The notes beneath the pieces were generated by a model. It worked only from the letters and a program-made list of their open reading frames with translations. It was not told the DNA's origin and searched no databases. This document shows, piece by piece, positions 1 through 19,117 of a stretch of 32,000 nucleotides of DNA (positions within the stretch are counted from its first letter, which is position 1; every line of letters starts with the position of its first letter). The position numbers and the translations under genes were made by a program. The DNA comes from Symploca sp. SIO2E9 (GTDB lineage: Bacteria; Cyanobacteriota; Cyanobacteriia; Cyanobacteriales; Coleofasciculaceae), in the NCBI GenBank assembly GCA_010692645.1, contig JAAHGS010000030.1, positions 15,553-47,552 on the forward strand, given 5' to 3'.

Positions 1-828
1 AGCTTGAGTATATTTTTGGGCAAGCTTTCCCTTCTGCTGTGTTAGATTTGCCGTTAAGTGCCCGCACAAATTATTTACGTACTCTTCAATTTCAGTGGTA
101 TCTCCATCCGGCATTAAGGGCAAATTTTTTCGCCATATCTCCTGCCACTGTATTTCCTCTACTAGCCACTCTAGCCAGTCTCTACCTTTAAAGCAGTGGA
201 TACCCAGGGTCAAATGTAGTGAGGGTTGATCTTGGGCAATAGCATAGTGCCAATGTCCACGGGGAATGTAGAGTACATCTCCTGGATTAAGAATACACTG
301 GATGTAAGGTTCCCCCTCCGGTTGCTTCTGATGATGGAATTCTTCCTCCCGAAGAGGATATTTCAGTGTATCCTCAAAAACAAACCACTCCTTTTGTCCC
401 TCAATCTGAAGAATAAAGACTTCGTGGGTGTCGTAGTGGCAGTCAAACCCTTGCTGGGAAGGCCAGGAACAGTAGGTATTAAAATGAGCTTTACGATGAC
501 CGATTTCCTGCTGTAACGCCCAGATTAACTCAGCCAGCACCGCAACCCTTTCGTTAATTCGACTCAGGACTAAGCTCGCCCCTTGTTTGCAGTGCTTGAT
601 CCATTCTTGAGGATCAGAGGATGGTAAAATTTTGCCATTCAAGGCAAAACGTAGTTCTGGGTTACGAGGCTTGTGAAAGTTGAGTATATTATTAAGTTGT
701 TCCCAGGAAAACAGGTGCCTGAACTTATCAGGCGCTTCCGCAGGGATAAAAACCCCACGCTGAGTCCAGTTCTCAGATAAAAACTGATCAATTGAGTAAG
801 GGTGTAGGATACTTGCTAGGGTTTGCAT
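1..828 (-). CDS. JmjC / cupin-4 family Fe(II)/2-oxoglutarate oxygenase-like protein; the C-terminus runs off the window edge
   Basis: This ORF is absent from the supplied track because it has no stop inside the window. The ATG is at 828..826. I checked all 276 codons down to position 1 and found no stop. The translation begins MQTLASILHPYSIDQFLSENWTQRGVF. It carries an HxD motif in FDCHYDTHEVFILQIEGQKEW and a distal His in GDVLYIPRGHWHYA, which together form the double-stranded beta-helix facial-triad signature. The track ORF at 226..516 (+) is antisense to it. Confidence 0.8.
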   Translation of the reverse strand, partial: MQTLASILHPYSIDQFLSENWTQRGVFIPAEAPDKFRHLFSWEQLNNILNFHKPRNPELRFALNGKILPSSDPQEWIKHCKQGASLVLSRINERVAVLAELIWALQQEIGHRKAHFNTYCSWPSQQGFDCHYDTHEVFILQIEGQKEWFVFEDTLKYPLREEEFHHQKQPEGEPYIQCILNPGDVLYIPRGHWHYAIAQDQPSLHLTLGIHCFKGRDWLEWLVEEIQWQEIWRKNLPLMPDGDTTEIEEYVNNLCGHLTANLTQQKGKLAQKYTQA

Positions 829-885
829 AAGTAAATATACATAACTAAGCAGAAACTAGAATTTTTTATTAAATTTTTTGATGAA

Positions 886-916
886 AACCTGCTTAATTTA
901 TACAATTAAGCAGGTT
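886..916 (-). terminator. Perfect 13-bp stem / 5-nt loop hairpin between the peptide gene and the cupin gene; candidate intrinsic terminator or attenuator
   Basis: aacctgcttaatt (886-898) pairs with aattaagcaggtt (904-916). On the minus strand the stem is followed by TTTTCATC. A second hairpin, ttaaaagttgc/gcaacttttaa, lies at 947-978, directly after the peptide stop codon. Confidence 0.5.
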
Positions 917-990
917 CAGGAATTTATCGTCTTGGCAAAGACTCTCTTAAAAGTTGCTCGGGTTGGGGCAACTTTTAATTCTAAGAGTTA

Positions 991-1311
991 TTAACCAACA
1001 GCACCGGTAGCAACTACGCTAGCTTCAGCAAGACCATCGGTTACGGTAACAGCGAAGTCGATTTCAGCAAAAGAGTCGTTGCCAATAGCGGTAACATCAC
1101 CAATTACTTGAGCAAAGTTGCCGGTGATGTCTACAGTGCTATCTAAGTTGACATCAATATCTTTGTCAATGTCGACGTCTACATTAGCATCGAAGTTGAG
1201 GTCAACGTCAACTTCAATGTCAACATCCTTGGTAACGTTAACACCACCATAACCACCAACAACATTGGACTCTTCAACAACTTCGAGATAGCTTAGGTCA
1301 GAAATAATCAT
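991..1311 (-). CDS. Double-glycine-leader secreted peptide precursor (bacteriocin-like) with an Asp/Val-rich repetitive core
   Basis: The track ORF 991..1356 begins at a TTG. The first ATG (1311..1309) gives MIISDLSYLEVVEESNVVGG|YGGVNVTKDVDIEVDVDLNFDANVDVDIDKDIDVNLDSTVDITGNF... The N-terminal 20 aa fit the double-glycine leader pattern (DLSxLE...VVGG). The 86-aa core is very acidic, has alternating hydrophobic/Asp residues and contains no Cys. The stop is TAA at 993..991. A C39-peptidase ABC exporter and a HlyD gene lie in the same window. Confidence 0.75.
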   Translation of the reverse strand: MIISDLSYLEVVEESNVVGGYGGVNVTKDVDIEVDVDLNFDANVDVDIDKDIDVNLDSTVDITGNFAQVIGDVTAIGNDSFAEIDFAVTVTDGLAEASVVATGAVG

Positions 1312-1400
1312 TGTTTTTTCCCTTTTTGTTTTATGTTGTGCTTGAAGCAAGCTCAACTTTGTTTGTACATGTTTAATATAGCTAGTATTTCCAGAGTATG

Positions 1401-1416
1401 GTTGCCATTTTGGCAG
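1401..1416. promoter_or_regulatory. Candidate operator: 16-nt dyad GTTGCCATTTTGGCAG (TGCCA-N3-TGGCA), copy 1
   Basis: The dyad lies about 90 nt upstream of the peptide ATG (1311) in the gene's sense direction. A 15/16-identical copy occurs at 1615-1630. Confidence 0.35.
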
Positions 1417-1614
1417 GTTTATCTAAAAAAAAATAGAGGCTATTAGATTAGGGCTTTTCAGCTTTATTGAAGTGATTAAGAACTGTTGAATCATTAAAAA
1501 TGAGTGATATTAATTGAAAATATGGCCTTTGACAATACTAATTATCTAATGCATATAAATTGTTACAATCTGCAAAAACAAGAGTTGTCTAAGTAACATA
1601 ATATTGAACACAAT

Positions 1615-1630
1615 GTTGCCATATTGGCAG
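1615..1630. promoter_or_regulatory. Candidate operator: 16-nt dyad GTTGCCATATTGGCAG, copy 2
   Basis: It carries the same TGCCA-N3-TGGCA palindrome as 1401-1416, 214 bp further upstream of the peptide gene. Confidence 0.3.
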
Positions 1631-1789
1631 AATTTATAATTGAATTCAAATCTGTTTGAATGCACTTAATTTTAGTGATGCTGGCTCTGTTAAGGAGAGT
1701 TTATAAGGTAAATCTTGAGGTATTTCGAGTATTGAATATTAGTGTATTAAAATTGATAAATTTAAACCAATTTCTAAGTAGGTTGGGTT

Positions 1790-1841
1790 GAGGCAACGAA
1801 ACCCAACATATATATGAGGCAACGAAACCCAACATATATAA
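1790..1841. repeat. Tandem duplication, 2 x 26 bp (gaggcaacgaaacccaacatatata-)
   Basis: 1790-1815 and 1816-1841 are identical except for the last base. Confidence 0.85.
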
Positions 1842-1851
1842 TCGTCAGAGT

Positions 1852-2872: not shown

Positions 2873-2882
2873 TTTAGAGGGC

Positions 2883-2900: not shown

Positions 2901-2902
2901 TG

Positions 2903-3649
2903 TTAACCTATAACTGGTAACATTTCAGGATGAATAGCGATCGCATGCCCAACATGCCAGCGAATATTAGGATAGGCTGCTTCTAGGGGGGTGATTTCAT
3001 ATCCTAGAGCTCTCAGAAAAGAAGCAATCTCCTCACTTTTGCGTTTGAAAGCCAAGCCATTGCCATCATCTACCTCATAAATGATGATTGGTTTAAATTC
3101 ATTCAGGGTTTGGACCATTCCCCTTAAAACCTCAATTTCTGCACCTTCAACATCAACTTTTACAAATGTTGGTGGTAGTAAAGTCTTCTGTAAGACTAAA
3201 TCATCAATACAGACGAGATCAACTGTCATTTCTCCCTTCAAATCAGGAGGTGTACCAGCAGTAGAGAGAGTAGCTCCTCCATGATGATGTGCTAGCAACA
3301 GCTCTCCACTTCCTGTGGTGTGGGAAACTGCTTTTTCCAGCAAGGTTACATTTGAGAACTCATTTAGTTTGACATTCTCTGAAATCCTAGCAGCGTTCTC
3401 TGGAACCGGCTCAAAAGCATAGACCTGTCCTGAAGCTCCAACTAGCTTAGCAGCAATTACAGTAAAGAAGCCAATATTAGCACCAATATCGTAGAAGATT
3501 CCCTCAGGTTTTAAGTAGCGTTGTAAAGCTTTCTGAAGCGGAAGTTCATAAGTACCTACTTTACAATCACGATTAGACTTATCAGCTTTGAACTTTAGTC
3601 CTGCACCTACTCCCTGACTAAGAGTAACATCTTGATTTTGGAAAACCAT
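2903..3649 (-). CDS. FkbM-family SAM-dependent methyltransferase
   Basis: A 248-aa ORF with an ATG start. It carries the motifs FYDIGANIGFFTV, VYAFEPVPENAARISENVKLN and FVKVDVEGAEIEVLRG, which are typical of FkbM-type methyltransferases. Confidence 0.85.
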   Translation of the reverse strand: MVFQNQDVTLSQGVGAGLKFKADKSNRDCKVGTYELPLQKALQRYLKPEGIFYDIGANIGFFTVIAAKLVGASGQVYAFEPVPENAARISENVKLNEFSNVTLLEKAVSHTTGSGELLLAHHHGGATLSTAGTPPDLKGEMTVDLVCIDDLVLQKTLLPPTFVKVDVEGAEIEVLRGMVQTLNEFKPIIIYEVDDGNGLAFKRKSEEIASFLRALGYEITPLEAAYPNIRWHVGHAIAIHPEMLPVIG

Positions 3650-3653
3650 GTTC

Positions 3654-5786
3654 TTATACCTTTGCTACCAAGTTTTTTAATACGCTACCTGTATCATTGC
3701 CCCATTCCCAATTAGCCACAATACCAACACGGTTAATAGAAAGAGGCACGGCATCTGGATAAACGTCTGTAAGGGCACGATATAGTACTGGCTCATCGTT
3801 GATGAAGGTAGTGTAATTCATGCCATCAAAGACTGTACGGAGCTTGTGAGCAACACCCCAATAAACCCGCTCACCCACATTCGTCCAAACAGCGTCGTAT
3901 AATTCCTCAAAGCCATTGAGATAGAAAAACGATGAAATTGAGGCACCACCGTAACAGTCATCTAACCAGTTGTTGATCATGATATAGTTGTTGGCATCTT
4001 GCCAAAACACCAGCCCGCTACGACCTTTTTCTCTCTGCCCTCGCCTAGTTCCAGGGGGTATAATCTCTATCTGTAGATCTACAAAGTTAGGGTTATCCCA
4101 GTCAACAGTGTAGGCAGTACGACCAGGATTAGGATTTTTGGCATTAGCTTGGACTTTAGCAGCACTGTTGCCAGTTAGCTCAATCACCCCTACTCCCATT
4201 TGCTTGTGCCAAGACTTTCCACCGATAGTTGTGGTTTTTCCGAGCAATTCTCCAGTTGAACCAGCAAAATCCTCGCTAATCACCACTTGCTTACCTTCCA
4301 CCATCCAGGGAGAACCTAGTTTAAGATTAGAGGGGATAGGAATGCTGCGTGGATGAGCCTCGAAGCAGCGAAAATACAAATTACTGTTAGCCTTAATCGC
4401 ACCAATACCAACGCCTGTAGCATTTTGCAGACGGTTATCAGTAAAACGCTTATTAAACAGCAATTTAGCATTTAGGTACAGACTGAAGCTCTCACCGTCA
4501 TCCAATATCTGTAAGGAGTTGATTGCTGAGGGCTGTAGATACCACAAATTACTAGCTGCTAAAATTTCCCACTTACCATTATCCAGAATCTGAAGCTTAC
4601 ACTGTTCCCCATCTGCCAGAATACTCCAGAAGTGGTTCTGATCCTGAAAACGCCAGAGAATGCGGGCACCAGTCACCTTCGCAGATGTTTCAATCAACAG
4701 ATGAACAAATCCAGAAGCTGTAGTACTCTCCAACACAGCTAGACTATCCATTTCCGTCGCTTGAGCACCATTAGCTGTTAATTGATAACTTCCTTGGTAT
4801 ACATTCCAGCAGCCACCCTTATCAGCTTGGGCACCATCAAGCAAACCATCGCCCATCAGGTTATCTGCTACATCTGCCGTGCCATACCAAGTCCCAATTT
4901 CTGGAATTTGCGCCACCTGAGTACCATAAACACGTGTATCAACTCGAAAACCACACTGTCCTAGAATACTTTGGTATAAGCCGGCGTAAACCGTAGCCTC
5001 CTCATTGAAGGGGTCGATCGCAATCAGGCGCATGTTAGGATAAGCCACGAGACCATGGGCATTAGGAACAGAAGCGGCATAGTAGGCTGCTCCCTTCTCC
5101 CGCAGAACTACGATGTAATAAAGCTGAATATTTTGTAAGCCTTTAAATGCTGAAAGCAGATGTTCTCCTACATTAGCCCACAACTCTCCATTTTCTGAGC
5201 CAGTAGCATGAACAATAAAGGAATTTCCCTCTACCAGTGGGTTATTAGGAACTTCTTGAGGAAACCAACCCACTGCCAGGTTTTCATCGATAGATGGCAA
5301 ATTAAATGGTTTGATGTATTTTGAGATTTTGGAAGTACTACGAATCCACCACAGGAATCGTCGCAGCATCCATCTTTTGTGTTTACTAGAAGCCCAACGT
5401 AGAAGACGCTCAGCTGGTTTATCCACCTCAGGACCAACTACCCAGCGATTGAGTCGCCCCTTGAGGGACTCAATCCTTTCCATCTGGGAGGTATTATGAC
5501 CATTGAGAAGAAACACTGCAAAGGCTAGCCCGTTGGTGCGAGTGTAGGGACCATAGGCAATACCTTGTCTTCCCCAAGCAGGTTTTAAAAGAGGCTGTAG
5601 ACGCAGTGCACCATTGTCAACAGCGATTTGCTTTTCTACGTCAACGCCCTTACGGATTTGGCCCCCCGGAGTTTTAGTGCCAATCGTCTTGCCAGCAGCA
5701 CGGTTGTCTGAGAATGAGTCGGTTAAAGGTTTTGTAATTGTTTTTATTTGTTCGGTATATTTTGGTGGTAGCTGCTGAGTTTTCAT
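3654..5786 (-). CDS. Conserved-looking hypothetical protein (710 aa), function unknown; possibly built from beta-sandwich (ConA/LamG-like) modules
   Basis: A long clean ORF with an ATG start. It ends 4 nt upstream of the FkbM gene, which suggests an operon. I can name no catalytic motif. The W/G/N/Y-rich segments (RILWRFQDQNHFWSILADGEQCKLQILDNGKWE; GLVFWQDANNYIMINNW) are only weakly suggestive of lectin-like jelly rolls. Confidence 0.7.
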   Translation of the reverse strand: MKTQQLPPKYTEQIKTITKPLTDSFSDNRAAGKTIGTKTPGGQIRKGVDVEKQIAVDNGALRLQPLLKPAWGRQGIAYGPYTRTNGLAFAVFLLNGHNTSQMERIESLKGRLNRWVVGPEVDKPAERLLRWASSKHKRWMLRRFLWWIRSTSKISKYIKPFNLPSIDENLAVGWFPQEVPNNPLVEGNSFIVHATGSENGELWANVGEHLLSAFKGLQNIQLYYIVVLREKGAAYYAASVPNAHGLVAYPNMRLIAIDPFNEEATVYAGLYQSILGQCGFRVDTRVYGTQVAQIPEIGTWYGTADVADNLMGDGLLDGAQADKGGCWNVYQGSYQLTANGAQATEMDSLAVLESTTASGFVHLLIETSAKVTGARILWRFQDQNHFWSILADGEQCKLQILDNGKWEILAASNLWYLQPSAINSLQILDDGESFSLYLNAKLLFNKRFTDNRLQNATGVGIGAIKANSNLYFRCFEAHPRSIPIPSNLKLGSPWMVEGKQVVISEDFAGSTGELLGKTTTIGGKSWHKQMGVGVIELTGNSAAKVQANAKNPNPGRTAYTVDWDNPNFVDLQIEIIPPGTRRGQREKGRSGLVFWQDANNYIMINNWLDDCYGGASISSFFYLNGFEELYDAVWTNVGERVYWGVAHKLRTVFDGMNYTTFINDEPVLYRALTDVYPDAVPLSINRVGIVANWEWGNDTGSVLKNLVAKV

Positions 5787-5819
5787 ATATTAAATCTCTA
5801 TAATTATTATGAAACGCTA

Positions 5820-5921
5820 TATAGCAATTCTCTTTCTTAGTGAGATACGCTTCATCTTCTTACCTGTTCCCTGTTCCCTAAAGCCCAAGGAGTGTACCTG
5901 ATCAATTTGAGAAACCCTATA
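5820..5921. mobile_element. Family-C MITE copy 1 (TATAGC...CTATA termini, CCTGTTC heptamer core)
   Basis: The sequence is tatagcaattctc...gagatacgc...cctgttccctgttccctaaagcccaag...caatttgagaaaccctata. It aligns with 30929-31044. Its right terminus contains the stop codon (5919..5917) of the PIG-L gene. Confidence 0.6.
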
Positions 5922-6738
5922 CTTTAATCTTATATCGATAGAAAATTTCTGTTTCTTGAAAAAAACATTTTAAAAACTCACCATTCGACACATCACCCAA
6001 TGTCAGCCAACGTGAATTATTCATCAGCCTGATCATCTGAGATTTGTGTTGGTCTAGGGCACTACGTTTAAGCTCTAAAATATCTCCTACATAGACAGAA
6101 CATCTGAAATCATTTAGGAACCTTAATCCTGAATTTAAACTCTTTTGTAAAAATGTTAATAATTTTTTGCGGTCACCTCCGCAATCTGTCCAAGGCCACT
6201 GATTCCAGAACCATATAGGATACTCATAAACAGTTGTATTGAGACCAGATTTCTTTAGTGCAGATACTACAATTTTATTAGTAGCATTATGGTCTGATAT
6301 GCCATCTTGATAGTAAGGAATAAAGATTTCTTCAGGTAGGAAATTAAGAATAATTTGTATAACTCTCTGGATAGTCTGATTCTGATTGTTAGCTAGGGTT
6401 CCATCTTTGACTTCAAGAAATATAACATCACTTGCTTCGACTCCCAGTTTTTGAGCTGCAGCCAAAGCTTCATGAGCGCGTATAGCCTTTAACTTATTTG
6501 CTGGAATCAGATGGGAGTGAGAAGTAGAGCCATCAGTCATAAAAACAATTTTTAAATCCGCTCCAGCTTGCTTTTTACGGATAATTGTTCCTCCACAACC
6601 AAGAGTTTCATCATCCTGATGTGGTGAAAAAACAAGCGTTGAGCGCTCCAGATTATTCTTCTCATATTCAATCATCGTGTTATCCCTTAAGGATCGATAC
6701 AACCACCGCCCCGGAGTTTTTAAGGAGAATTCACTCAT
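5917..6738 (-). CDS. PIG-L / LmbE-family N-acetylglucosaminyl deacetylase
   Basis: A 273-aa ORF with an ATG start. The diagnostic motif is LVFSPHQDDETLGCGGTI, followed by MTDGSTSH. A shorter start at MIEYEK is also possible. Confidence 0.85.
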   Translation of the reverse strand: MSEFSLKTPGRWLYRSLRDNTMIEYEKNNLERSTLVFSPHQDDETLGCGGTIIRKKQAGADLKIVFMTDGSTSHSHLIPANKLKAIRAHEALAAAQKLGVEASDVIFLEVKDGTLANNQNQTIQRVIQIILNFLPEEIFIPYYQDGISDHNATNKIVVSALKKSGLNTTVYEYPIWFWNQWPWTDCGGDRKKLLTFLQKSLNSGLRFLNDFRCSVYVGDILELKRSALDQHKSQMIRLMNNSRWLTLGDVSNGEFLKCFFQETEIFYRYKIKV

Positions 6739-6850
6739 AACTTTAGCATAACTTTAGTTTTTTTGTAATTAGAGTTATTCATAGTTAATAGTTCATAGGA
6801 AAGCTCCTTTAAATCATTCTTTCCTTTCCATGTATGATCTAAACAGCCCT

Positions 6851-6922
6851 ATGAACTATGTTTGCGCAGCATGCGCGGAGCGCCTACCATGAACTACCAA
6901 CCATGAACTATGAACCATGAAC
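6851..6922. repeat. Cluster of ATGAAC short repeats overlapping the 3' end of the TPR-GT4 gene
   Basis: ATGAAC occurs at 6851, 6889, 6903, 6910 and 6917. The last codons of the gene (KSVHGS*) are encoded by the repeat. Confidence 0.7.
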
Positions 6923-8983
6923 AGACTTACCACAGATATTTTTGTATTGAGATAGTAAATCATCAGCAACCTTCTCGAACGAGAAAAACTCAACTGCTCG
7001 TTTACGCCCAGCCTGCCCCAGAGATTTTCTTAACTCTTCGTCTGAAAAAAGTTGTATAATAGCTTCTGCTAAGGCATCAGCATCACTGCGTTCAACTAGT
7101 TTTCCTGTCTTACCATCTTCGACTAGTTCTGGAAAAGCACCACCGTGGGTAGCAATTACAGGAACACCTGCAACCATAGCTTCAGCAATAGGCATACCAA
7201 ATGCTTCGTGGCATATTGACGGGAAGATAAAAATGTCAGTCTGCTGGTAATATTTAGCCAAGTTTGAAGGTGGAACTAAACCAGCTAATGATAGTGGTTT
7301 AGGGACATTGTCACCAGCTTGACCATTCAACTGAGATAACTGTTTTTTCAGATAACTTATCCAAGTATCATCACGGTGGAATGAGACTAAATCTGCAACT
7401 TTGGGGTCATCACTCAATGCCACAAGGTATTCGTAGGGTATTACTCCTAAGGGACCTACTAGAGTAAGTTGTGTTTCTGGATATTGTGCAACTACTTTTT
7501 GAAAAGCTTCTAATAATACATGCACTCCTTTTTCTGGACAAACTCTGCCAACAAAAAGCAAGCGTTTGACATTATTTTTATTGGTTAGATTTTGACCAAG
7601 AAGAGAGGAATTAATAAAACGCTCAACATTCACGCCATTGGCAATAGCCTGACAGCGTTGAGCAAATTGAGGAAAACGCTGGCTAATAGCTTTTGTAATA
7701 TACTGACTAGGGCCGATAACTAAATCGACTTTACTGAGCCTTCCTTCAAGGCTTTTTTTGTCAAGTTGTGAGAGCCACTCACAATGCATGTGCAGGACTA
7801 TTTTTATGCCAGGATTAAAAGCTCGTATAACTGGAATAAACTGAGAGAAATTGTGAATATGAACAACGTCACATTGCTGCTTTCTCAAGTCATTTGCTAT
7901 CCTTAAAATATATCCTAGATAATATAAATTAGAACCAAAGATAGGGCGCTTAGTCTGGTCAAAGCCTGGAAACTTTTCCAGATACTTGAGCAATAACTTA
8001 TCTTGACTTATGGGGATATATCGATAATCCACTCCTTGATGAGAGACTTCCTTAAAGCTTTCTCCTGGTGTATAGACTATGACCTCGCAATCGGATGACA
8101 AAAGACTTACCAATTCGTAAGTCAAAATCCCAATTGAATCAGCGGGTTTAGGATAGCTTGTCATCACCATAGGCTGACCGATAAATGCTATCTTTAATCT
8201 GTCTGGAGAATCTGCTTTCTTTAACTTATTTTGCTGGCGATAAAGCTGGCTTAACTTATTGTGGATTAACTTATTGTAAACTTCCGCGTCGCTGGAATTG
8301 AGTTCTAGGGCTTGTTGATAGGAGTCGATCGCCTCTTCCAGCTTGCCTTGTTCTTGCAGTGCTAATCCTAAGTTATAATGTGCAAGGGCTAAGTCTGGCT
8401 GTAAAGCGATCGCCTGACGATAGTAAGTAATAGCATTCTTCAAATCCCCTGCTTTTTTCTGGCTAAGACCAAGATCATGGTTTAGTGCTGCGTAGTAGGG
8501 TTGTTTTTCTGGAGGGAGTTTCCCTAAGACATGGAGGGCGTTAGCCCAATTAACACTAATCTCAATAGAATCCGGCTTAACTTCGAGGGCTTTTTGATAG
8601 CAGGCGAGTGCCTCTTCCCAAAGCCCTTGTTGTTGTAATGTATAACCAAGGTTGTTGTGAACTGCTACCAACTTCGGTTGCATTGCTAAGACTCGATGGT
8701 AAGCTTCCACCGCTTCTGGCAATTGACCTTGAACTTGGCGCAAATTGCCTAGACTGAACCAAGCCTTGACAGAATTTGGCTGGACATAAAGGATCGCATT
8801 AAAAAACTTCTCTGCATTCTCGTATTGCCCTACCTGCTGTGCCAGCATTCCTAACCCGTGTAATGCCTCTGGATGCTTAGGCTGTATTTTCAGGATCTTA
8901 TCGTAAAACTGCTTAGCTTGGGGTAAACGATTAGCCCGATGATGTTGAACAGCAAGTTGAAGTGTTTCAGAAACGGTTACCAT
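6908..8983 (-). CDS. TPR-repeat protein fused to a GT4-family (Glycos_transf_1) glycosyltransferase
   Basis: The track start at 8989 is a TTG, and the ATG at 8983 gives MVTVSETLQLAVQHH. The N-terminal part is about 270 aa of TPR repeats. The C-terminal part has the GT-B motif EAFGMPIAEAMVAGVPVIATHGGAFPELVEDGKTGKLV. Confidence 0.85.
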   Translation of the reverse strand: MVTVSETLQLAVQHHRANRLPQAKQFYDKILKIQPKHPEALHGLGMLAQQVGQYENAEKFFNAILYVQPNSVKAWFSLGNLRQVQGQLPEAVEAYHRVLAMQPKLVAVHNNLGYTLQQQGLWEEALACYQKALEVKPDSIEISVNWANALHVLGKLPPEKQPYYAALNHDLGLSQKKAGDLKNAITYYRQAIALQPDLALAHYNLGLALQEQGKLEEAIDSYQQALELNSSDAEVYNKLIHNKLSQLYRQQNKLKKADSPDRLKIAFIGQPMVMTSYPKPADSIGILTYELVSLLSSDCEVIVYTPGESFKEVSHQGVDYRYIPISQDKLLLKYLEKFPGFDQTKRPIFGSNLYYLGYILRIANDLRKQQCDVVHIHNFSQFIPVIRAFNPGIKIVLHMHCEWLSQLDKKSLEGRLSKVDLVIGPSQYITKAISQRFPQFAQRCQAIANGVNVERFINSSLLGQNLTNKNNVKRLLFVGRVCPEKGVHVLLEAFQKVVAQYPETQLTLVGPLGVIPYEYLVALSDDPKVADLVSFHRDDTWISYLKKQLSQLNGQAGDNVPKPLSLAGLVPPSNLAKYYQQTDIFIFPSICHEAFGMPIAEAMVAGVPVIATHGGAFPELVEDGKTGKLVERSDADALAEAIIQLFSDEELRKSLGQAGRKRAVEFFSFEKVADDLLSQYKNICGKSVHGS

Positions 8984-9021
8984 CCTCAATCCTCATTGCT
9001 TAGAGACTGTATTGCTAATTT

Positions 9022-9067
9022 GTTCATTGCTCATTGTTCATAGTTCATAGTAATCAACCATGAACAA
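9022..9067. repeat. GTTCAT/ATGAAC short inverted repeats forming a hairpin in the intergenic gap
   Basis: GTTCAT occurs at 9022, 9036 and 9044. ttgttcat (9034-9041) pairs with atgaacaa (9060-9067). The hexamer is the same as in 6851-6922. Confidence 0.6.
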
Positions 9068-9163
9068 TCAACCATTAACCAATTGGCGGTTTGCTTTTCT
9101 CCCTAATCTTCCAGAGATGGGAACTACCGCCAATTCCTGTTACTCACAAACTGCCTATTCTGA

Positions 9164-12100
9164 TTATGGATAAGCGAAGTACAAATTATCTAGATGACTG
9201 CCATCGTCTGAGGATTTTGCCATCATTTTCTCGGCAATTGCATTCCGTAAGGGAGCCACTTGATCTGTGGTTAGCCAGGTGAATAACTCCGTCACTGCCT
9301 CTGGTGAACTATCGATTTTGACTGCTTCTTGAACCAGACGAAATGCAGCAGCAAGATTGCCAGCTTTTAGAGGAATTTGCGCTTGTGTTAGGCACAAATT
9401 AAAGTAATGGCGACGGGCTTTTGCCGTAATTTGTGTACGATGCTCAGCAGGAAGATAACTCTCTGAGATTTCAATTCCTTTGCGGTAGTATTCCCCCTGT
9501 ACCCCGGCTAGAAAAACTTCACTGGACATATTTTGGGAGTGCTGACGGTAACGGGCTAAAATTCCTGGCTCGAACCACCAATCATAAAAAGCAGCAATGC
9601 GTTTATAGAGTTCCCAGTCTGGTGTATATAGATTCCCTGGATCATAAACTCCCAATCGTTCATGAGCTACTCGACGAATTACAGTTGCACAGGGATTTAA
9701 GGGGTTTGAAACACCAATTCGCTGTAGCCATTCCTGATTGATGCCCTGTTGCATTCGAGCATGCTTTTGGGTGAAAGTTACCTGCCTGTTGTCATTAATA
9801 TTTTCATAACCTGTAAAAGCTGCTCCTACAGAATCTGGACATCCCTCTAGACTCTGTTGTAATCGAGAATAAAAACCTGGGAGGACATATTCATCCTCAG
9901 GGAGCAGGTGAATCCACTTACCACGACTGAGGGCAATTCCCAGATTAAAATTACGCCTAGCTCCAATATTTTCTGGATTTAGATAATAGCGGACTATTCC
10001 ACCACCAATGGCATTAACTAAATTATATAGAGGTGGATTACTGGCATTATCCATAACCAGAATTTCCATCTCTTCTTTACCTTGCCACTGAGCCAGCACG
10101 CTGGCAAGACATTCCAGAAGATAGTATTTCCGATTGTACAAGGGAATAATTACTGTCCAAAAAGGTCGTTTCTCCTCACTCTCTGCAACAGGAGGAATTA
10201 CTGGAAACTGATAGTTACCAACAGTGACTTCCTCTAGTTGTAGCTGCGGAGGTTTGTGTTCTTCTGTAGGAGTAGTAGAACCCTGGTATGCTTCGACGGC
10301 TTCAGCATAGCGAGGATTGATTAGCTTTAATCCCTGCCTATAAGCGGCAGCAGCTTCTTCTAATTTGTGCTGTATTTGGTAAATCTGTCCCAAGCCCAAA
10401 TAAAATTCCCCGTAGTTGGGATTGAGTTCCAAGGCTTGGTGATAGCAAGTGATGGCTTCTTCTAAATTTCCTTGTGTTTGTAGGGCTACCCCCAAGTTAT
10501 AGTGAGCTTCCCATAAGTCTCGCTGTAGGGTAATTGCCTCCCGATAGTATGCCACAGCATTGTTCATATCCCCAGCTTGTTTCCGGGCAAAGCCTAATTT
10601 GTTATTTAATTGTCCATAGTGTGCTTGTTTATCTGTGGAGAGTTTTCCTTGGGCGTGAAGGGCATTGCCCCAATTCACGTCGGCTTCAACGCAGTTAGGC
10701 TCAAGTTCCAGGGCTTTTTGATAGCAAGCGATCGCTTCTTCAAACTTACCTTGCTGTTGTAGAGTGTAACCGAGGTTGTTATAAATTGGTGCTGATTTTG
10801 GTTGCAGGGCAATAGCTTGCTGATAAGCCGCTTCTGCTTCTGGTAATTGAGCTTGAGCTTGATGCAAATTGCCTAAACTAAACCAACTCTTGAAAGATTC
10901 TGGCTGAACCTTAAGGGCTTTATTCAGTAACTTCTCAGCTTCTTGGGGTTGATTATTCTGCTGCGCTAGTACACCTAAACCATGTAAAGCTTCCGGGTGA
11001 TTAGGCTCTTGTGCGAGAACTTTCTGGTAATCCTGCGCAGCTTTGGCTAAATGATTGGCTCTATGGTTTTGAACAGCAAGCTTGAGAGTTTGAGAAACTT
11101 GAGAAACTTTTGCCATATCAAATTCCCTTTTTTCTTGATGCCGAAAGCTTTGATTTAATCTGTTCCTAACCGATACATCTTGTTGAGCAACTGTATTCAA
11201 GATAAAATCCTCTAAGGCTGTAATCGGTTCTTGGTCTCCGTATAATTTATGTTTATTCTGGGCTACTAGACTGGATATGTGTTGACGATATTGAGGATCT
11301 TTCCCTAAACGGACAGCAATCTTCACATATTCATCCTTACTAGAAGCAATTGTCTCCTCAATACCCATCATTTTGAGAATGGCAACCGCATGTCTTGCCC
11401 GCATCAACTCTCCTGGATAGGTAACAATTGGCAGGTTATGGGCAGTAGATTCCATAATCGTGTTGTTTCCAGACCAACCAATATTATCGAGGAAAACATC
11501 AGCAATAGCAGTTACTCCAGCAAATTTTCTACCCTTTAGGCGAGGCACAAAGATGCAATAGTCTTGATAATTAAGTCCAAATTCCTCAAAAGCACGACTT
11601 AAACGCTGTTGAAATACTTCAGTTACTTTGTCACTGGCATCCATAAGATGCTTAATAAAAACAAATTTACAGTTTATTAATTCCTTAGCAATCCTTGGAA
11701 AAATATCATCATGTTGAGGTAAATACTTAAACAATGATTGGCAGCACCAGAACATAACTTCATGCTCAGCAATGCCGATTTCCTGTTTACTAATTGCTTG
11801 GGTTTGGATATTTAAAAAGGTGTAATAAATTGCTAAATTTGGTAATCTGACTAACTTCTCAGTGTAATGTTCTTGAGCATTATCTGGTTCCATTAAATCA
11901 CTACTTAAGTGATAATCAATGGTTGGTAGACCACTGGTTTCTGGATGTCCTCCAAATACTACTTGCACAGGAGCTAATCTTAAACATCCCAGCTTAATTG
12001 TGATCGGATCCATCCCAAATTCAGGAAAAATTAGGATGTGTAGATTATCTCGCCGAATAACCTCACACCATTTTTCTATACTTAACGGACCTTGAATAAA

Positions 12101-13363
12101 TTTGCTAACAGCTTGAGTTGCTCTTGCTGTGGCATCATCCTGTTTGGAACCTGTATAATACCCAAATACTTCAAACAGATTTCTATTCAGGTTTTCTAAC
12201 CAACCTTTAATTGGTATTTTCCAAACGGAATGGTTGTTAAAAAAACCAGAAATAAAGCCCACACGAATTTTTTCGTTCGCCGCTAAATCCGGAATTGAAA
12301 TTGGCTGGCTCCATTGAGGATAGCGGCTCGACATTAGCCGACAAATCATCTCCCCATAAGTTTGCTGCAAATCTCGGTCATTTAGACCTTGATATGCTAG
12401 ATAAAATGGCTGAAGAGAGCCAACGGCATCAGCTGCATTTGCCAGTTCTTTTTGATTCTCAAGTTTATAACTATCAGCTAAAGCTTGTAGATGCTGCTGG
12501 TAATTATTCCGCATTAATAAGATTTCGTCAGCACTTGAATAGATAGTAGGAAGTTGACTCATACAAATGCCAAATTTGGCTTCATTGAAGTTAGGCTTAA
12601 GCTTTAAGGCTTGCTGGTAAGATTGTATGGCTTCCTCTAACTTTCCCTGTCTCTTGAGCGCATTTCCTAAATTGTAATAAACCTCAACACAGTCAGGGTT
12701 TAACCTTAATGATTGACGGTAAGCTTGTACTGCTTCCTCTATTTTTTTTTGTTCCTTGAATGCCTTGCCTAAATTATTATAAACTTCAGCAAAGTCAGGA
12801 TTGAGTCTTAAGGCTTGCTGGTAAGACTGTATGGCTTCCTCTAACTTTCCCTGTTCGTGAAGAAGATTTCCTAAATTGTTATAAGCATGAGCATAGTTAG
12901 GGTTGAGCCTTATTGCTTGTTGGTAAGCTTGTACAGCTTCCTCTAACTTTCCCTGTGCTTTGAGTACGTTTGCTAAATTGTTATGAGCCTGAACATAGCT
13001 AGGATTGACCCTTATTGCTTGCTGGTAGGACTTAACAGCTTGCTCTAATTTTATCTGTTGTTGGAATGCATTTCCCAAGTTGTAATGAGCTTCAACAAAA
13101 TCAGATTTGATCTTGATAGCTTGCTGGTAAGATTGTACTGCTTCCTCTAACTTTCCCTGCTTCTGGAGGAGATTGCCTAAGTCAGTAATTATCAGGTGAT
13201 ATATGTTACTTAGGAAATCTTGTTCTACTGCACTAGTAGACTGAGTTTCTAATACCTGTCTGTATATAGATTCAGCCTCATGCAATTCGCCTAATTTATG
13301 TTTCTGGGATGCAGTCTCAATTAGAGATTTAATATTTGGTTCTAAAAAGTTTTTGGTATTCAT
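9164..13363 (-). CDS. Multidomain glycosyltransferase: TPR array - GT41 (SPY/O-GlcNAc-transferase-like) domain - second TPR array - GT2 domain
   Basis: The track start at 13417 is a TTG that overlaps a hairpin. The ATG at 13363 gives MNTKNFLEP. The N-terminal TPRs carry repeated ...AHxNLGNxxxxQGKLEEAxxxYQQAxxLxP units. The central region has the GT41-like motifs IRVGFISGFFNNHSVWK, VVFGGHPETSGLPTIDYHLSSD and HYTEKLVRLPN. A second TPR block starts at the internal MAKVSQVSQTLKLAV (ATG at 11116). The C-terminal GT2 domain has WTVIIPLYNRKYYLLECLASVLAQ...ILVMDNAS...LLPEDEY. Confidence 0.85.
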   Translation of the reverse strand: MNTKNFLEPNIKSLIETASQKHKLGELHEAESIYRQVLETQSTSAVEQDFLSNIYHLIITDLGNLLQKQGKLEEAVQSYQQAIKIKSDFVEAHYNLGNAFQQQIKLEQAVKSYQQAIRVNPSYVQAHNNLANVLKAQGKLEEAVQAYQQAIRLNPNYAHAYNNLGNLLHEQGKLEEAIQSYQQALRLNPDFAEVYNNLGKAFKEQKKIEEAVQAYRQSLRLNPDCVEVYYNLGNALKRQGKLEEAIQSYQQALKLKPNFNEAKFGICMSQLPTIYSSADEILLMRNNYQQHLQALADSYKLENQKELANAADAVGSLQPFYLAYQGLNDRDLQQTYGEMICRLMSSRYPQWSQPISIPDLAANEKIRVGFISGFFNNHSVWKIPIKGWLENLNRNLFEVFGYYTGSKQDDATARATQAVSKFIQGPLSIEKWCEVIRRDNLHILIFPEFGMDPITIKLGCLRLAPVQVVFGGHPETSGLPTIDYHLSSDLMEPDNAQEHYTEKLVRLPNLAIYYTFLNIQTQAISKQEIGIAEHEVMFWCCQSLFKYLPQHDDIFPRIAKELINCKFVFIKHLMDASDKVTEVFQQRLSRAFEEFGLNYQDYCIFVPRLKGRKFAGVTAIADVFLDNIGWSGNNTIMESTAHNLPIVTYPGELMRARHAVAILKMMGIEETIASSKDEYVKIAVRLGKDPQYRQHISSLVAQNKHKLYGDQEPITALEDFILNTVAQQDVSVRNRLNQSFRHQEKREFDMAKVSQVSQTLKLAVQNHRANHLAKAAQDYQKVLAQEPNHPEALHGLGVLAQQNNQPQEAEKLLNKALKVQPESFKSWFSLGNLHQAQAQLPEAEAAYQQAIALQPKSAPIYNNLGYTLQQQGKFEEAIACYQKALELEPNCVEADVNWGNALHAQGKLSTDKQAHYGQLNNKLGFARKQAGDMNNAVAYYREAITLQRDLWEAHYNLGVALQTQGNLEEAITCYHQALELNPNYGEFYLGLGQIYQIQHKLEEAAAAYRQGLKLINPRYAEAVEAYQGSTTPTEEHKPPQLQLEEVTVGNYQFPVIPPVAESEEKRPFWTVIIPLYNRKYYLLECLASVLAQWQGKEEMEILVMDNASNPPLYNLVNAIGGGIVRYYLNPENIGARRNFNLGIALSRGKWIHLLPEDEYVLPGFYSRLQQSLEGCPDSVGAAFTGYENINDNRQVTFTQKHARMQQGINQEWLQRIGVSNPLNPCATVIRRVAHERLGVYDPGNLYTPDWELYKRIAAFYDWWFEPGILARYRQHSQNMSSEVFLAGVQGEYYRKGIEISESYLPAEHRTQITAKARRHYFNLCLTQAQIPLKAGNLAAAFRLVQEAVKIDSSPEAVTELFTWLTTDQVAPLRNAIAEKMMAKSSDDGSHLDNLYFAYP

Positions 13364-13415
13364 TTTTAGAAAACGCACTTTTTTTGCGGCGGTATAAATT
13401 TTGAAGAGTAAAGGC

Positions 13416-13434
13416 AAAGGAGAGTCTCTCCTTT
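13416..13434 (-). terminator. Short inverted repeat aaaggagag-t-ctctccttt downstream of the HetP-family gene; weak terminator candidate
   Basis: Nine-bp arms separated by 1 nt, located between the HetP-family stop (13501) and the next gene's ATG (13363). No clear U-tract follows. Confidence 0.3.
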
Positions 13435-13500: not shown

Positions 13501-13950
13501 TTACCAGATAGAAGTTGAAGTTTGTTGATTGATATAAGTTACTGACTGACATGGAATTGACTGGCATTCTTCCAGTTCGTGGTTAAAGTAATGCTCCTGA
13601 TAACCACCTTGTACTTTTGGGGCTTTATCCCTAAGTACCTCACAATATTTAAGGTCATCAATTTTGCTTAAAAGCTGGTTGGAAACTTTGTTGTTATAAC
13701 CCTTTTCTGTTTGCTGTTGATGTGCTTTGATACTATCCGATTTCTTCCTTCGTGATTTGCCATTTTGGCAGTTTTCTTTATTCAACCGACTATAGGTGCG
13801 GTAGGGAATATAGTGGAGGGGGTTGTAGCCAGCAAAACGTAGGATCAAAACACAAGCCCAGGAATATTTGCCATCAAGAATTGCTTCTACAATCTGGTTA
13901 AACTGTTCAGAACTTAAACCTTTGTCAAATTGATTGTTGCTATAAATCAT
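13501..13950 (-). CDS. HetP-family (heterocyst commitment protein-like) protein
   Basis: A 149-aa ORF with an ATG start. The N-terminal block [40 protein letters not shown] matches my recollection of the conserved HetP N-domain. The C-terminal half is low-complexity and basic. Whether this is the orthologue or a paralogue of hetP cannot be decided here. Confidence 0.65.
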
Positions 13951-13988: not shown

Positions 13989-15683
13989 TTAAATGTTCAT
14001 GCCGCCCTCTTGCAGCTTTTTGAAAGGTTCTAACAAAAAGTCTGCAATTCGACGGCGGCGGATAATAATATCAGCGCTGGCTGTTTGACCAGCCTTAAAC
14101 TCGATAGTTTCTTCATTGTCAGTTACATAGTTACGTTCTAACTCCACTTCCACTCGGTAGACTGCACCCATTTGTGGATCTGGCTTAGCATCAGGGGATA
14201 CCGAAGTAACTTTCCCTGAAACAATGCCGTACTCCTGATAAGGGTAAGCATCGAATTTGACCTGAGCTTTCATGCCCATCTTGATAAAGCCTGCCTCACG
14301 GTTGGGTAAACTTGCTGAGAGAACCAGTGGCGCACTATCCGGGGCAATTTCAGCAATAGTTTGGCTCGGTTGAACCACTTCACCGATATTGGCAAAGTTG
14401 AAGGATGAGACAATTCCATCAACCGGTGCATAGAGAAACTTCTTTTTTAGCCTTGCCTTAGCACTTGTAAGCAGATTTTTGTTGTTGGCAATTTTAGCTT
14501 TGAGTTGGGTCATTTCTAATTCGAGTTCCCCCAGTTCCTGCTGAAAATCGATCTGAATCCTGTTTTCTTCAGTTTGCTTCTGGCTTAACACTGCCTGGAG
14601 TCGGTCGATTTCTGCCAGAGTCTGCTGCAATTCACCCTGGTTTTGACTAATAAGCACAGAACGATCTCGCAGACTTTGCTGGGCTTGAAATATCCTTTCG
14701 GTGGTGTGGGTTTCCTCTTGCAATTGGCTTTGGGTGATGGCACTCTGGCTCGCACGGAGGTTTTGTTCAGCTTGAAACACTAGTTCCCTGGAGATAGCAC
14801 CATCTGCCAACAGTGGTTGCAACCGCTGAAGTCGTTCTTGTTGAGCATTAACATCAGCCCGCCGTTGACCAACTAGTTCTTGAGCCTTGAGGGCCAGAGG
14901 TTTCATCCTTTCTAGTCTTTCCCGCTCAACAGATAACCAAGCTTGATCTTGAGCCAGCCGCTGTTTAATCACAGCTGCTTTAGATTTCGCCTGAGCAATT
15001 GCCGCTTTTTGAGCTTGAGTGTCTGCCTTGGCAATTTGGTCACGACTTTGAGCTTCCAGACGAATTTGCTCAGCCAAAGCCACTTTTTGAGTCAATTCCA
15101 CTTGCTCTCCACTGAGTAGTTGCTCCAGACGTTCTACTTCAGCAGCAACCAGCTCTGTATCTAATTCCACTAATTCTTGCCCTGCTTTAACCGATTGACC
15201 TTCTTCAACATGAATTTTGGCAATCTTGTCTAGTTCAAGGGCATGAACTTTATACACTTGTCCTTTTGGTACTAATTTGCCTTGGGCAATACCTACTTCG
15301 TCAATCTGACCAAAGGTTGCCCAAGTACCAAATGTCACCAAGAAAACCAATCCTCCCAAGAGCATCTTCTGGGGCAGGGTTGCAGAGGGTTGGTCCAGCA
15401 GTGTTTGTAAGGAGGTTGACCAGTTGCTAGTATTGGTGGCTGCTGCCGGCGATGCAATTGTTAAGAGATCCTGTTTATTTACATTTAATTGCTTAATTTG
15501 TTGGTATGTTGCTGATGTACCTCCAGAGATAGATTCACTCTGGGAAGATGCATCATATAATCCTCGATCATCACGTTCTCTGGTTAGAGCAGATTTAAAG
15601 CTCGCTTCAGAGTTCGTGACCAAGTTAACACTTGGTTGACTTGAAGACTCTGTAAGAGGAGTCGATTCTGTTGATTTGTCCAT
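13989..15683 (-). CDS. HlyD-family membrane-fusion / periplasmic adaptor protein of a type I (ABC) exporter
   Basis: A 564-aa ORF with one TM segment (LLGGLVFLVTFGTWATF) and the lipoyl-like motifs HVEEGQSVKAGQELVELD and APVDGIVSSFNFANIGEVVQP. Between them is a very long Q/E/A/L-rich coiled coil. The C-terminal part is a beta-barrel region. Confidence 0.9.
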   Translation of the reverse strand: MDKSTESTPLTESSSQPSVNLVTNSEASFKSALTRERDDRGLYDASSQSESISGGTSATYQQIKQLNVNKQDLLTIASPAAATNTSNWSTSLQTLLDQPSATLPQKMLLGGLVFLVTFGTWATFGQIDEVGIAQGKLVPKGQVYKVHALELDKIAKIHVEEGQSVKAGQELVELDTELVAAEVERLEQLLSGEQVELTQKVALAEQIRLEAQSRDQIAKADTQAQKAAIAQAKSKAAVIKQRLAQDQAWLSVERERLERMKPLALKAQELVGQRRADVNAQQERLQRLQPLLADGAISRELVFQAEQNLRASQSAITQSQLQEETHTTERIFQAQQSLRDRSVLISQNQGELQQTLAEIDRLQAVLSQKQTEENRIQIDFQQELGELELEMTQLKAKIANNKNLLTSAKARLKKKFLYAPVDGIVSSFNFANIGEVVQPSQTIAEIAPDSAPLVLSASLPNREAGFIKMGMKAQVKFDAYPYQEYGIVSGKVTSVSPDAKPDPQMGAVYRVEVELERNYVTDNEETIEFKAGQTASADIIIRRRRIADFLLEPFKKLQEGGMNI

Positions 15684-18900: not shown

Positions 18901-19117
18901 CCTGAGTGTGTTCATCATGAACAGAATCTTCTGAAGTATTGGTGGCAATGTAGCTGTGTAAATAATCACCTAGTTGAAAATCGCTGATTTCAAATGCCTG
19001 AGTGAAATCTGACTCCAAGTATTTGTCCTCGGAAGACAGGCTCAGGAGGTTGAGGATATCGGTAAGGCTCTCGAAAACATTTTTTTTGCTTGCGTAGAGC
19101 CCCTTAGATCCTGACAT
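15971..19117 (-). CDS. Peptidase-C39-domain ABC exporter with an N-terminal cyclic-nucleotide-binding-like domain (HetC-like architecture)
   Basis: A 1048-aa ORF with an ATG start. The N-terminal part is a cNMP/CAP-effector-like fold (GLFIICQGRVRLLGF...LEAGDSFGSEPLF). The C39 catalytic Cys lies in QQHSSSDCGAACLAMIGRYWGK. Six TM helices follow. The ATPase motifs are Walker A GRSGSGKST, signature LSGGQRQRIAIARAL and Walker B ILVLDEATSSLD. Confidence 0.9.
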   Translation of the reverse strand: MSGSKGLYASKKNVFESLTDILNLLSLSSEDKYLESDFTQAFEISDFQLGDYLHSYIATNTSEDSVHDEHTQGLFIICQGRVRLLGFDTTQSKEVSVMVLEAGDSFGSEPLFVHIPALTRVIAASEGQIAWMPIAKLQSWLEKLPQLRQKLLESAQTRQSLVFFKTATQWRRLPVASLKQVLPYIEETLMPADEALIKSSDSGHFWLRSGEISKGKEITTSITGESWGYPEPIPAEWIAKTDLLVYKLPKEHWAVVAGLGVNLDSQDSKPIAAASGNGDLAQQNNGGVANRLRAIPPSNLHKKIPPKPPTPASNTESEKIDFPQPARLPRRRGFWQRYPFIQQHSSSDCGAACLAMIGRYWGKRFNLNSLRELAGVGRSGASLKGLARAAETLGFRSSPVRASLSRLVEQANPWVAHWQGDHYIVVYRVKGNRVILADPAMGVRSLSKQEFISNWTGYALLLDPTVQLAAAKDEKISLNRFWGLLWPHRGILLQVVLASLLLQVFGLITPLFTQIILDRVIVNKSLITLQVVAAGLVIFGLWGIGITATRRYLMDYYSNRLSLTFLSGFMNHTLRLPLKFFESRQVGDIITRVQETRKIQSFITKQAISTWLDVLMLFVSTGLMLYYNWQLTLLVLSTIPPIAILTVVASPFLRQLSREIFKASAEQNSKLVEMMSGVATVKASAAEQEVRWQWEELLTNQFNVRFKAQKLSNGLRSVSGFFKTISSTALLAYGANLVISDQLTIGQFVAFNMLIGRVTGPVLKLVGLWDQFQEILVSVERLNDIFATQPEENPREPMLVMPPIRGDVVLENITFRYSEEEDKNTLQNISLEVRAGQTIAIVGRSGSGKSTLVKLLQALYYPTQGRICIDGHDIRHVSPESLRSQLGVVPQECFLFSGTILENIVLYRPEFSLEQAIEAAKLAEAHAFIQSLPLGYNTKVGERGATLSGGQRQRIAIARALLGSPRILVLDEATSSLDTESERRFQQNLARISRERTTFIIAHRLSTVRNADCILVLDKGILAEQGNHEQLMALEGIYYHLARQQLEL

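Follow-up and report, generated by a model that had tools for sequence, protein, structure and literature searches.

A double-glycine peptide gene directly upstream of a JmjC oxygenase gene

We analyzed a 32,000-nucleotide stretch of the genome of the cyanobacterium Symploca sp. SIO2E9 (assembly GCA_010692645.1, contig JAAHGS010000030.1, positions 15,553 to 47,552; hereafter the window), at the start of which two minus-strand genes stand in tandem: a small gene encoding an Asp-rich peptide with a double-glycine (GG) leader and, downstream of it, a gene encoding a JmjC-type Fe(II)/2-oxoglutarate (2OG) oxygenase. The peptide gene (991..1311, minus strand) is a 106-aa open reading frame (ORF) with its ATG at 1311 and its stop at 991-993, and with relatives in more than 100 cyanobacterial species representatives it is, on this comparative evidence, a real gene. 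Its product consists of a 20-aa leader, MIISDLSYLEVVEESNVVGG (residues 1-20, nt 1252-1311), of the type IxDLxYLE-x8-GG, and an 86-aa core that starts YGGVNVTKDVDIEVDVDLNFDANVDVDIDKDIDVNLDSTVDITGN. Double-glycine leaders are about 15-25 residues long, end in GG, GA or GS, and carry hydrophobic residues at positions -4, -12 and -15 and an acidic residue at -8. The window's leader has V(-4), L(-12), L(-15) and E(-8), with E rather than a hydrophobic residue at -7; in an alignment of the family with 13 relatives G19 is invariant and V17 and V18 are nearly so. It also fits the motif KIxDLxYLE...GG published for cyanobacterial peptides (PMC3140520).

By composition the core contains 16 Asp, 6 Asn and 16 Val, with neither Cys nor Arg. 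Asp and Asn together make up 26% of the whole core and 38% of its first 45 residues, where Asp alternates with hydrophobic residues in a D-hydrophobic-D pattern. In an AlphaFold2 (AF2) model, residues 9-61 have a predicted local distance difference test (pLDDT) score below 50 and residues 62-106 one of 85-90, the latter forming a predicted three-stranded beta domain. No confident structure was obtained for the Asp-rich part (residues ~21-65), which is predicted to be disordered and would therefore be accessible.

The oxygenase gene starts with an ATG at 828, occupies 1..828 of the window (minus strand, codons 1-276) and continues beyond it; the complete gene encodes 393 aa (G000:C224:15199-16380, where C224 is the window's contig), and a convergent RTX-like gene follows it in the contig. 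The 276 residues within the window match the Pfam family JmjC_2 (PF08007) with E=2.8e-27 and 95.2 bits against a gathering cut-off of 22, and the same domain is present in all 120 listed homologues. The Fe ligands H131, D133 and H194 and the 2OG-binding K146 align with those of NO66 and are invariant across 51 homologues. Sequence matches in the PDB are NO66, MINA53, YxbC and YcfD. The AF2 model (pLDDT 87) comprises a JmjC barrel, a helical dimerization domain and a C-terminal winged helix, and Foldseek aligns it over its full length with NO66, MINA53 and YcfD (~450 columns, E down to 2.5e-24). The enzyme thus belongs to the ribosomal oxygenase (ROX) type and, from its residues and predicted fold, looks catalytically competent. 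Its winged-helix domain (residues ~300-393) is, from the model, a candidate leader reader.

The two genes are separated by a spacer of 162 nt (829..990, minus strand) with two stable predicted RNA hairpins; its minimum free energy is -37.6 kcal/mol against -20.8 +/- 3.2 for shuffled sequences (z = -5.3). Hairpin 1 (947-978, minus strand) has the arms AAAAGUUGC...GCAACUUUU, also written AAAGUUGC...GCAACUUU, and hairpin 2 (885-917, minus strand) has the arms AACCUGCUUAAUU...AAUUAAGCAGGUU, followed by UUUUCAUC. Oscillatoriales RM2_1_1 and Symploca SIO3C6 also have hairpin 2, in the latter with compensatory changes. Hairpin 1 is found again 3' of peptide genes from several groups (Lyngbya, Microcoleaceae, Oscillatoriales, Cyanothece and Limnoraphis), among them genes with no oxygenase downstream; it therefore belongs to the 3' end of the peptide gene, where it presumably acts as a terminator or stabilizer, and a role as an oxygenase-specific attenuator is not supported. 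An earlier sequence-only reading, made from the letters of this stretch alone, had described an Asp/Asn-packed GG-leader peptide, a JmjC gene 162 nt downstream on the same strand with an intact HxD...H triad, and an attenuator-like hairpin between them. The peptide and the enzyme are as it described them, and the hairpins are indeed strong, but hairpin 1 is not specific to the oxygenase.

JmjC clades and their Asp-rich peptide partners

We examined the linkage of the two families from both sides. A scan of species-representative cyanobacterial genomes for the peptide family gave 113 tblastn-confirmed members, of which 79 loci were kept, and a JmjC gene stands within 10 kb of the peptide gene at only 2/77 loci. 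Taken alone, this count would refute the link by the standard that the sequence-only reading itself set, and that conclusion was set aside only after a search from the enzyme side. For that search we looked for homologues of the oxygenase in two sets of 401 genomes, one from the phylum and one from the order. The peptide gene directly precedes the JmjC gene in five genomes of different lineages: the window's own, Symploca SIO3C6 (enzyme 88% identical to that of the window), Cyanothece SIO1E1 (75%), Limnoraphis robusta (60%) and Oscillatoriales RM2_1_1 (55%).

Full-length JmjC homologues of 41-59% identity occur in 80/401 genomes of the order, and nearly all homologues are preceded by a small ORF on the same strand. 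These ORFs combine a strand-like motif (SKIQVEVKEI, AIEVEVVNL and variants) with an Asp-rich tail, for example NVDADGSDVTNE, DADGGDLNTDADGGD, DYDRGQDYDRGQ and NYDYSRNYDYSR. Under a fixed criterion, an upstream same-strand ORF had to contain phi-x-phi-E-phi-x-[DENK]-phi and end in an Asp-rich tail; such a peptide is present at 25/39 loci with other JmjC homologues, and 1/657 other ORFs there fits the same description. Most of the other loci are near-misses with variant motifs. Neither these peptides nor the window's own has a family model in Pfam or NCBIfam.

A maximum-likelihood tree of 44 enzymes splits by the type of partner peptide into three clades, S, K and W, and the partner labels require 6 changes on this tree against 18.6 when they are shuffled. 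Clade S enzymes are partnered by D/N-repeat peptides with a signal peptide, clade K enzymes by short cytoplasmic peptides of the form SKIQVEVKEI...DADGGD together with a Suc_Fer-like protein, and clade W, which includes the window's enzyme, by GG-leader peptides. All 13 clade-W sequences form one clade (support 100/97 and 97). The window's genome also contains a canonical K-type cassette on another contig (G000:C353:4685-7880), composed of a 52-aa peptide, MLKAKQFRASKIQIEVKEIPQHKAVNKATQHLHADADGGDLNTDADGGDLGN (4685-4843), a JmjC paralogue with 46% identity (5054-6220), a Suc_Fer-like protein (PF06999; 6446-7447) and a convergent GNAT gene. This genome therefore holds two JmjC/peptide pairs side by side.

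Some further features of these cassettes were seen. The K-type peptide tails, such as those of L093-L097 (LNVDADGSDVTNE), have twelve conserved C-terminal residues, N-x-D-x-D-G-x-x-x-x-x-E, a pattern that we take to resemble the Ca-binding loop of an EF-hand. At the S-type cassettes L098, L100, L103, L106, L107 and L108 a convergent gene of ~270-285 aa replaces the Suc_Fer-like gene; it has a weak match to a nucleotidyltransferase domain (PF01909, E=0.005). Locus L146 (G545:C90:27000-43000) carries a K-type cassette of JmjC and Suc_Fer-like genes (4851-6029) and, 4.6 kb away, a stand-alone clade-W JmjC gene (10637-11803), whereas a different contig of this genome encodes its GG-leader peptide (L142). 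Calothrix sp. MO_167.B12 has tandem clade-W JmjC genes at 20-1231 and 1498-2784 (L154, G692:C64:308-4483). Calothrix MO_192 and C. rhizosoleniae (L150, L153) have a single clade-W copy with tetratricopeptide repeat (TPR) genes on both sides.

Genome-wide co-occurrence of clade W with one peptide subtype

No clade-W enzyme was found in a genome without the GG-leader peptide family. This holds also for the stand-alone clade-W genes (G172, G545, G660), which have no small peptide gene upstream and a GG-leader peptide elsewhere in the genome. The association is with one form of the peptide: a clade-W enzyme is present in 12/12 tested genomes with the Asp-rich subtype and in 0/18 genomes with other GG-peptide subtypes, counts that are descriptive and not probabilities because the genomes are related to one another. 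Tested carriers of the DVDIDVD-rich subtype are two Lyngbya, a Microcoleaceae, Calothrix MO_167, MO_192 and rhizosoleniae, and RM2_1_1; their enzymes are 55-57% identical and all belong to clade W. The same division is seen within the genus Calothrix (3/3 vs 0/3 for L025, L031 and L034, or 0/6 when L032, L039 and L042 are added). In the unbiased sample of 401 genomes of the order, the peptide family occurs in 4/4 genomes with clade W and in 53/397 others. Asp fraction was also tried as a predictor by itself and is imperfect, with L050, L076 and L080 having D >= 0.16 and no clade-W enzyme. The peptide tree, built on 101 columns, is poorly resolved.

A palindrome shared by peptide and oxygenase genes

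Another line of evidence comes from the sequence upstream of the peptide gene. An oriented palindrome, CCTGCCAAAATGGCAAC (1401..1417, minus strand), precedes the peptide ATG by 106 nt, one more copy (1615-1631) also stands upstream of the gene, and a looser copy (13758-13770) falls inside a HetP-family gene. TGCCA-N3-TGGCA has three matches in the window against 0.02 expected, and the 16-nt form has only four in the whole 7.75-Mb genome; further sites outside the window are at 11118-11133 in the same contig (L004, C224) and at G000:C145:6640.

The extended element, CTGCCA-N3-TGGCAAC (in sequence form CTGCCAAAATGGCAAC), occurs at 31/76 loci in the 400 nt that precede the first peptide gene, mostly 88-125 nt from the ATG. 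It is also found 84-201 nt before seven clade-W oxygenase genes (L091, L120, L121, L151, L152, L156 and L161), so that clade-W genes unlinked to a peptide bear the same palindrome as the peptide genes, and it has no match in 35 K- and S-type loci (145 kb). Oxygenase genes that closely follow a peptide gene (the window, L016, L014 and L159) have no copy of their own, as expected for co-transcription. As RNA the palindrome would give a hairpin of only 5 bp. At the level of sequence, the shared element is evidence of co-regulation that is independent of gene order, and it looks like an operator, a candidate for the control of a small regulon of GG-leader peptide, clade-W JmjC and RTX-like genes.

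The peptide family and its exporter

Proteins encoded in the window were compared by tblastn with the peptide loci, 62 of which have enough upstream and 61 enough downstream flank. In 45/62 the peptide gene follows, on one strand, genes for a C39-ABC exporter, the commonest neighbor of the family, and for its HlyD partner; a HetP-family gene is also upstream in 17/62, and a TPR-glycosyltransferase gene is directly downstream in 30/61. The window contains every one of these genes on the strand of the peptide gene, the exporter and HlyD at a longer distance. The block of exporter, HlyD and HetP genes at 13.5-19.1 kb was missed by the sequence-only reading; the exporter and HlyD genes lie 12.7 kb upstream of the peptide gene and on its strand. 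The block comprises a HetC-like peptidase-containing ABC transporter (PCAT) of 1048 aa (15971..19117, minus strand), with cyclic nucleotide monophosphate (cNMP)-binding, C39 peptidase and ABC domains assigned by Pfam; a HlyD-family membrane-fusion protein of 564 aa, its partner (13989..15683, minus strand; Pfam HlyD_3); and a HetP-family protein of 149 aa (13501..13950, minus strand; NCBIfam NF037966, E=5.9e-34). The exporter retains the catalytic Cys motif QHSSSDCGAACL and, on these sequence features, is presumed to be both the leader peptidase and the exporter of the peptide.

Proposed pathway and alternatives

Taken together, we think it reasonably probable that a secreted, modified small protein is made from the 106-aa precursor and that the downstream ROX-type oxygenase is its dedicated tailoring enzyme. 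A precursor with leader and core that is genetically coupled to a tailoring enzyme is one mark of a ribosomally made, post-translationally modified peptide (RiPP), and on genomic grounds such coupling is present here, through adjacency in five genomes, co-occurrence and a common cis motif. In the pathway we propose, the peptide gene would be transcribed from a promoter under the CTGCCA-N3-TGGCAAC element, and part of the transcripts would continue past both hairpins and include the oxygenase gene. In the cytoplasm the oxygenase would bind the precursor; contact may be made between its C-terminal winged helix and LEVVEE, a segment of the leader that is similar to VEVKE/VEVVN in the K and S peptides and that the winged helix may read. 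Side chains within residues ~21-65, the Asp-rich part predicted to be disordered, would then be oxidized by the enzyme. Beta-hydroxylation of Asp would be the likeliest reaction, with Asn a less likely target; this is the most economical guess because Asp is the sole feature common to the K, S and W peptides. Finally, the HetC-like C39-ABC exporter and HlyD would cleave after Gly20 and export the 86-aa modified core, for which a role as an acidic exoprotein that binds metal or Ca is conceivable.

Several observations weigh against this proposal, beginning with the scarcity of JmjC genes near peptide genes reported above. Three genomes do not follow the co-occurrence pattern: Cyanobacteria bacterium J06592_8, a metagenome-assembled genome, has a peptide of the Asp-rich clade and a JmjC enzyme of only 43% identity; Okeania SIO2F4 has a clade-W-like enzyme (63% identity) and readable peptides that are not Asp-rich (D = 9%) and are unlinked to it; and Synechococcus PCC 7336 has a clade-W-like enzyme (54% identity) with less Asp-rich peptides ~185 kb away. 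The co-occurrence counts overstate significance, as the genomes are phylogenetically non-independent. The oxygenase matched no PqqD-type RiPP recognition element family in Pfam or NCBIfam. To our knowledge, all characterized ROX enzymes act on His or Arg of ribosomal proteins and not on Asp. The idea from which we started, that the two gene families are linked in genomes and form a precursor/oxygenase pair, accordingly survives in altered form: adjacency is rare and confined to few genomes, but enzyme clade and peptide subtype co-occur genome-wide, share a cis motif and have paralogous counterparts, each clade with its own Asp-rich partner.

The alternative that survives best, though we consider it rather unlikely, is that peptide and oxygenase belong to one regulon or pathway in which the peptide is not the substrate; the enzyme would modify the HetP-like protein, a TPR-glycosyltransferase, an RTX-like exoprotein, a sugar or a small molecule, or the peptide would serve as its regulator or chaperone. 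The palindrome does precede an RTX-like gene in the window's contig (C224:11118), several clusters are flanked by RTX-like genes, and in Calothrix and Okeania the clade-W gene stands among TPR or TPR-glycosyltransferase genes and does not adjoin the peptide. Against this, three independent clades (K, S and W) each have a different type of Asp-rich peptide, while their other neighbors vary (Suc_Fer-like, nucleotidyltransferase-like, and TPR or RTX proteins), so that the only constant partner is the Asp-rich peptide. Clade W moreover tracks the Asp-rich subtype and not the TPR-glycosyltransferase or PCAT genes, which occur also without it.

A reading that we consider quite improbable makes the JmjC protein a common ribosomal-protein hydroxylase, comparable to E. 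coli YcfD/RoxA, that happens to lie beside a peptide gene. Its nearest structural and sequence relatives, NO66, MINA53 and YcfD, are all ribosomal oxygenases, automatic annotations from JGI name homologues 'ribosomal protein L16 Arg81 hydroxylase', and JmjC genes are infrequent within 10 kb of peptide loci (2/77). However, identity to YcfD is below 20%, and a presence in 80/401 genomes of the order would be odd for a housekeeping enzyme that modifies the ribosome. An accidental neighbor would also leave unexplained the Asp-rich small ORF that precedes the homologues (25/39 loci vs 1/657 control ORFs), an enzyme tree that tracks peptide type, the co-occurrence of clade W with one peptide subtype, and the peptide genes' upstream motif in front of clade-W genes. 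Least probable of all is a reading in which the peptide acts unmodified as a double-glycine exoprotein (resembling class II bacteriocins, or with a signaling or matrix role) and the oxygenase is, in a few genomes, a recent passenger with no functional tie to it: most family members do lack an oxygenase nearby or in the genome, and the predicted folded C-terminal beta domain could work unmodified, but adjacency recurs in five lineages with enzymes 55-88% identical, so it is old or repeatedly selected, and the 12/12 vs 0/18 distribution and the common cis motif are hard to explain by chance.

Returning to the proposal of a dedicated tailoring enzyme, it can be extended to a bolder form that we regard as unlikely. 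In this form the product would be an exported poly-beta-hydroxyaspartate protein of 86 aa that acts as a metal chelator, an analogue of hydroxyaspartate siderophores, or as a Ca-binding or biomineralization factor; the K, S and W pairs would make up a new, phylum-spanning RiPP-like class with the winged helix as leader reader; and the GG-leader peptides would be the cargo of HetC-type exporters.

Relation to known systems

The window's enzyme shares with the ROX enzymes NO66/RIOX1, MINA53/RIOX2, E. coli YcfD/RoxA and Rhodothermus tROX the Pfam family JmjC_2/Cupin_4, the HxD...H motif, the 2OG-binding Lys and the three-domain build, at only 16-23% identity. The ROX enzymes have His or Arg of ribosomal proteins as substrates and no dedicated peptide gene, whereas the family described here is patchily distributed (80/401) and coupled to Asp-rich peptide genes.

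Fe(II)/2OG hydroxylases that act on leader-bearing peptides are already known. Asp beta-hydroxylation in RiPPs is carried out by SmaO (in a graspetide pathway, with a DGDG sequence, a GG leader and a PCAT), CinX/DurX, YhhC and CanE (PMC12186529). By analogy, these resemble the pathway proposed here in having a leader-bearing precursor, sometimes with GG and PCAT, and an Fe/2OG enzyme that acts on Asp in an Asp/Gly-rich core. They show no sign of membership in JmjC_2/ROX, a distinction that is drawn from their descriptions and not from direct comparison of sequences. Their systems have short cores and a class-defining macrocyclase, whereas here the core has 86 aa, as many as 16 of them Asp, and further RiPP enzymes are absent. 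JmjC-fold hydroxylases have also been described in RiPP pathways: BipG is an ornithine hydroxylase of the biphenomycin pathway (PMC12707348) and CzlI a Phe hydroxylase of the curacozole pathway (PMC11575548). Like the window's enzyme these are JmjC-fold Fe/2OG proteins, and they act on ribosomal precursor peptides; they are, however, accessory enzymes of multi-enzyme Streptomyces clusters that modify Orn or Phe, whereas the window's JmjC protein is the sole candidate tailoring oxygenase, is of the ROX type with a winged helix, and is associated with acidic cores.

Closest to the window is the K-type cassette of acidic peptide, JmjC and Suc_Fer-like protein, with a homologous enzyme (41-50% identity) and an Asp-rich peptide gene directly upstream on the same strand. 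In clade W the short cytoplasmic peptide of the SKIQVEVKEI type and the Suc_Fer-like (PF06999) partner have been lost, and in the window a convergent RTX-like gene follows the oxygenase instead. The partner is now a GG-leader peptide, of 106 aa in the window, from a system with PCAT/HlyD export, and clade W shares the upstream motif of that system.

On the export side, the leader motif KIxDLxYLE...GG was described for the group II clusters of cyanobacterial double-glycine 'bacteriocins' (Wang, Fewer & Sivonen 2011, PMC3140520), a survey with no mention of cupin/JmjC enzymes or glycosyltransferases. These clusters and the Nostoc PCC 7120 hetC-hetP locus (PMC10986499) resemble the window in the C39-ABC exporter with a cNMP-binding domain, HlyD, the HetP-family gene and the leader type. 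According to a 2024 study of HetC, no GG-leader substrate gene is known near hetC (PMC10986499). In the papers searched we found no description of the peptide-JmjC pairing. What sets the present system apart is that an Asp-rich core of 86 aa would be tailored by a ROX-type enzyme alone and exported by a PCAT, and that the enzyme family has diversified into three putative substrate formats.

If the proposed pathway is correct, it would represent a RiPP-like class tailored solely by a JmjC protein of the ribosomal-oxygenase type, and would extend the ROX enzymes to dedicated acidic peptides. An enzyme family that has diversified with three substrate formats, cytoplasmic, Sec-signal and PCAT-exported, would offer a natural experiment in enzyme-substrate co-evolution. 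The GG-leader family adjoins HetC-like exporters in many filamentous cyanobacteria, heterocyst formers included, and so bears on what HetC-type PCATs export (PMC10986499), and the CTGCCA-N3-TGGCAAC element would give access to the protein that regulates the export system.

Neighboring genes and minor observations

A co-directional block of glyco-genes (2903..13417, minus strand) lies between the exporter and the peptide gene. With assignments from Pfam, it encodes a TPR-GT41-TPR-GT2 protein (GT, glycosyltransferase family; 9164-13417), a TPR-GT4 protein (6908-8989), a PIG-L deacetylase (5917-6738), a 710-aa protein of no assigned family (3654-5786) and an FkbM methyltransferase (2903-3649), all on the minus strand. 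The whole block is common only to the window and Symploca SIO3C6, in both of which the peptide gene is displaced to its far side, and is found in part in J06592_8 and Limnoraphis. It was considered as the true partner of the peptide and rejected on this distribution; that it modifies the peptide is speculative, and inspection of the family alignment by eye revealed no conserved N-x-S/T sequon.

The 1.6 kb between the FkbM gene and the peptide gene (1312-2902) is without long ORFs and contains a direct repeat, ggcaacgaaacccaacatatat, at about 1791-1840. Rfam has no match in positions 1-3000 of the window, and promoter-like matches are no more frequent than in shuffled sequences. Genes resembling IS605 OrfB/TnpB occur in or beside clusters in Limnoraphis (L161, 3145-4362), in Okeania (L160, 3199-4566) and in the window's contig (L004, 9081-10241), and such insertions may explain the variable gene order around the peptide. 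The Okeania sp. SIO2F4 locus (L160) also encodes, at 1969-2427, a Nif11-type precursor of 152 aa with a GG site and a Pro-rich repeat core, which shares its TPR-glycosyltransferase neighborhood with a clade-W JmjC gene.

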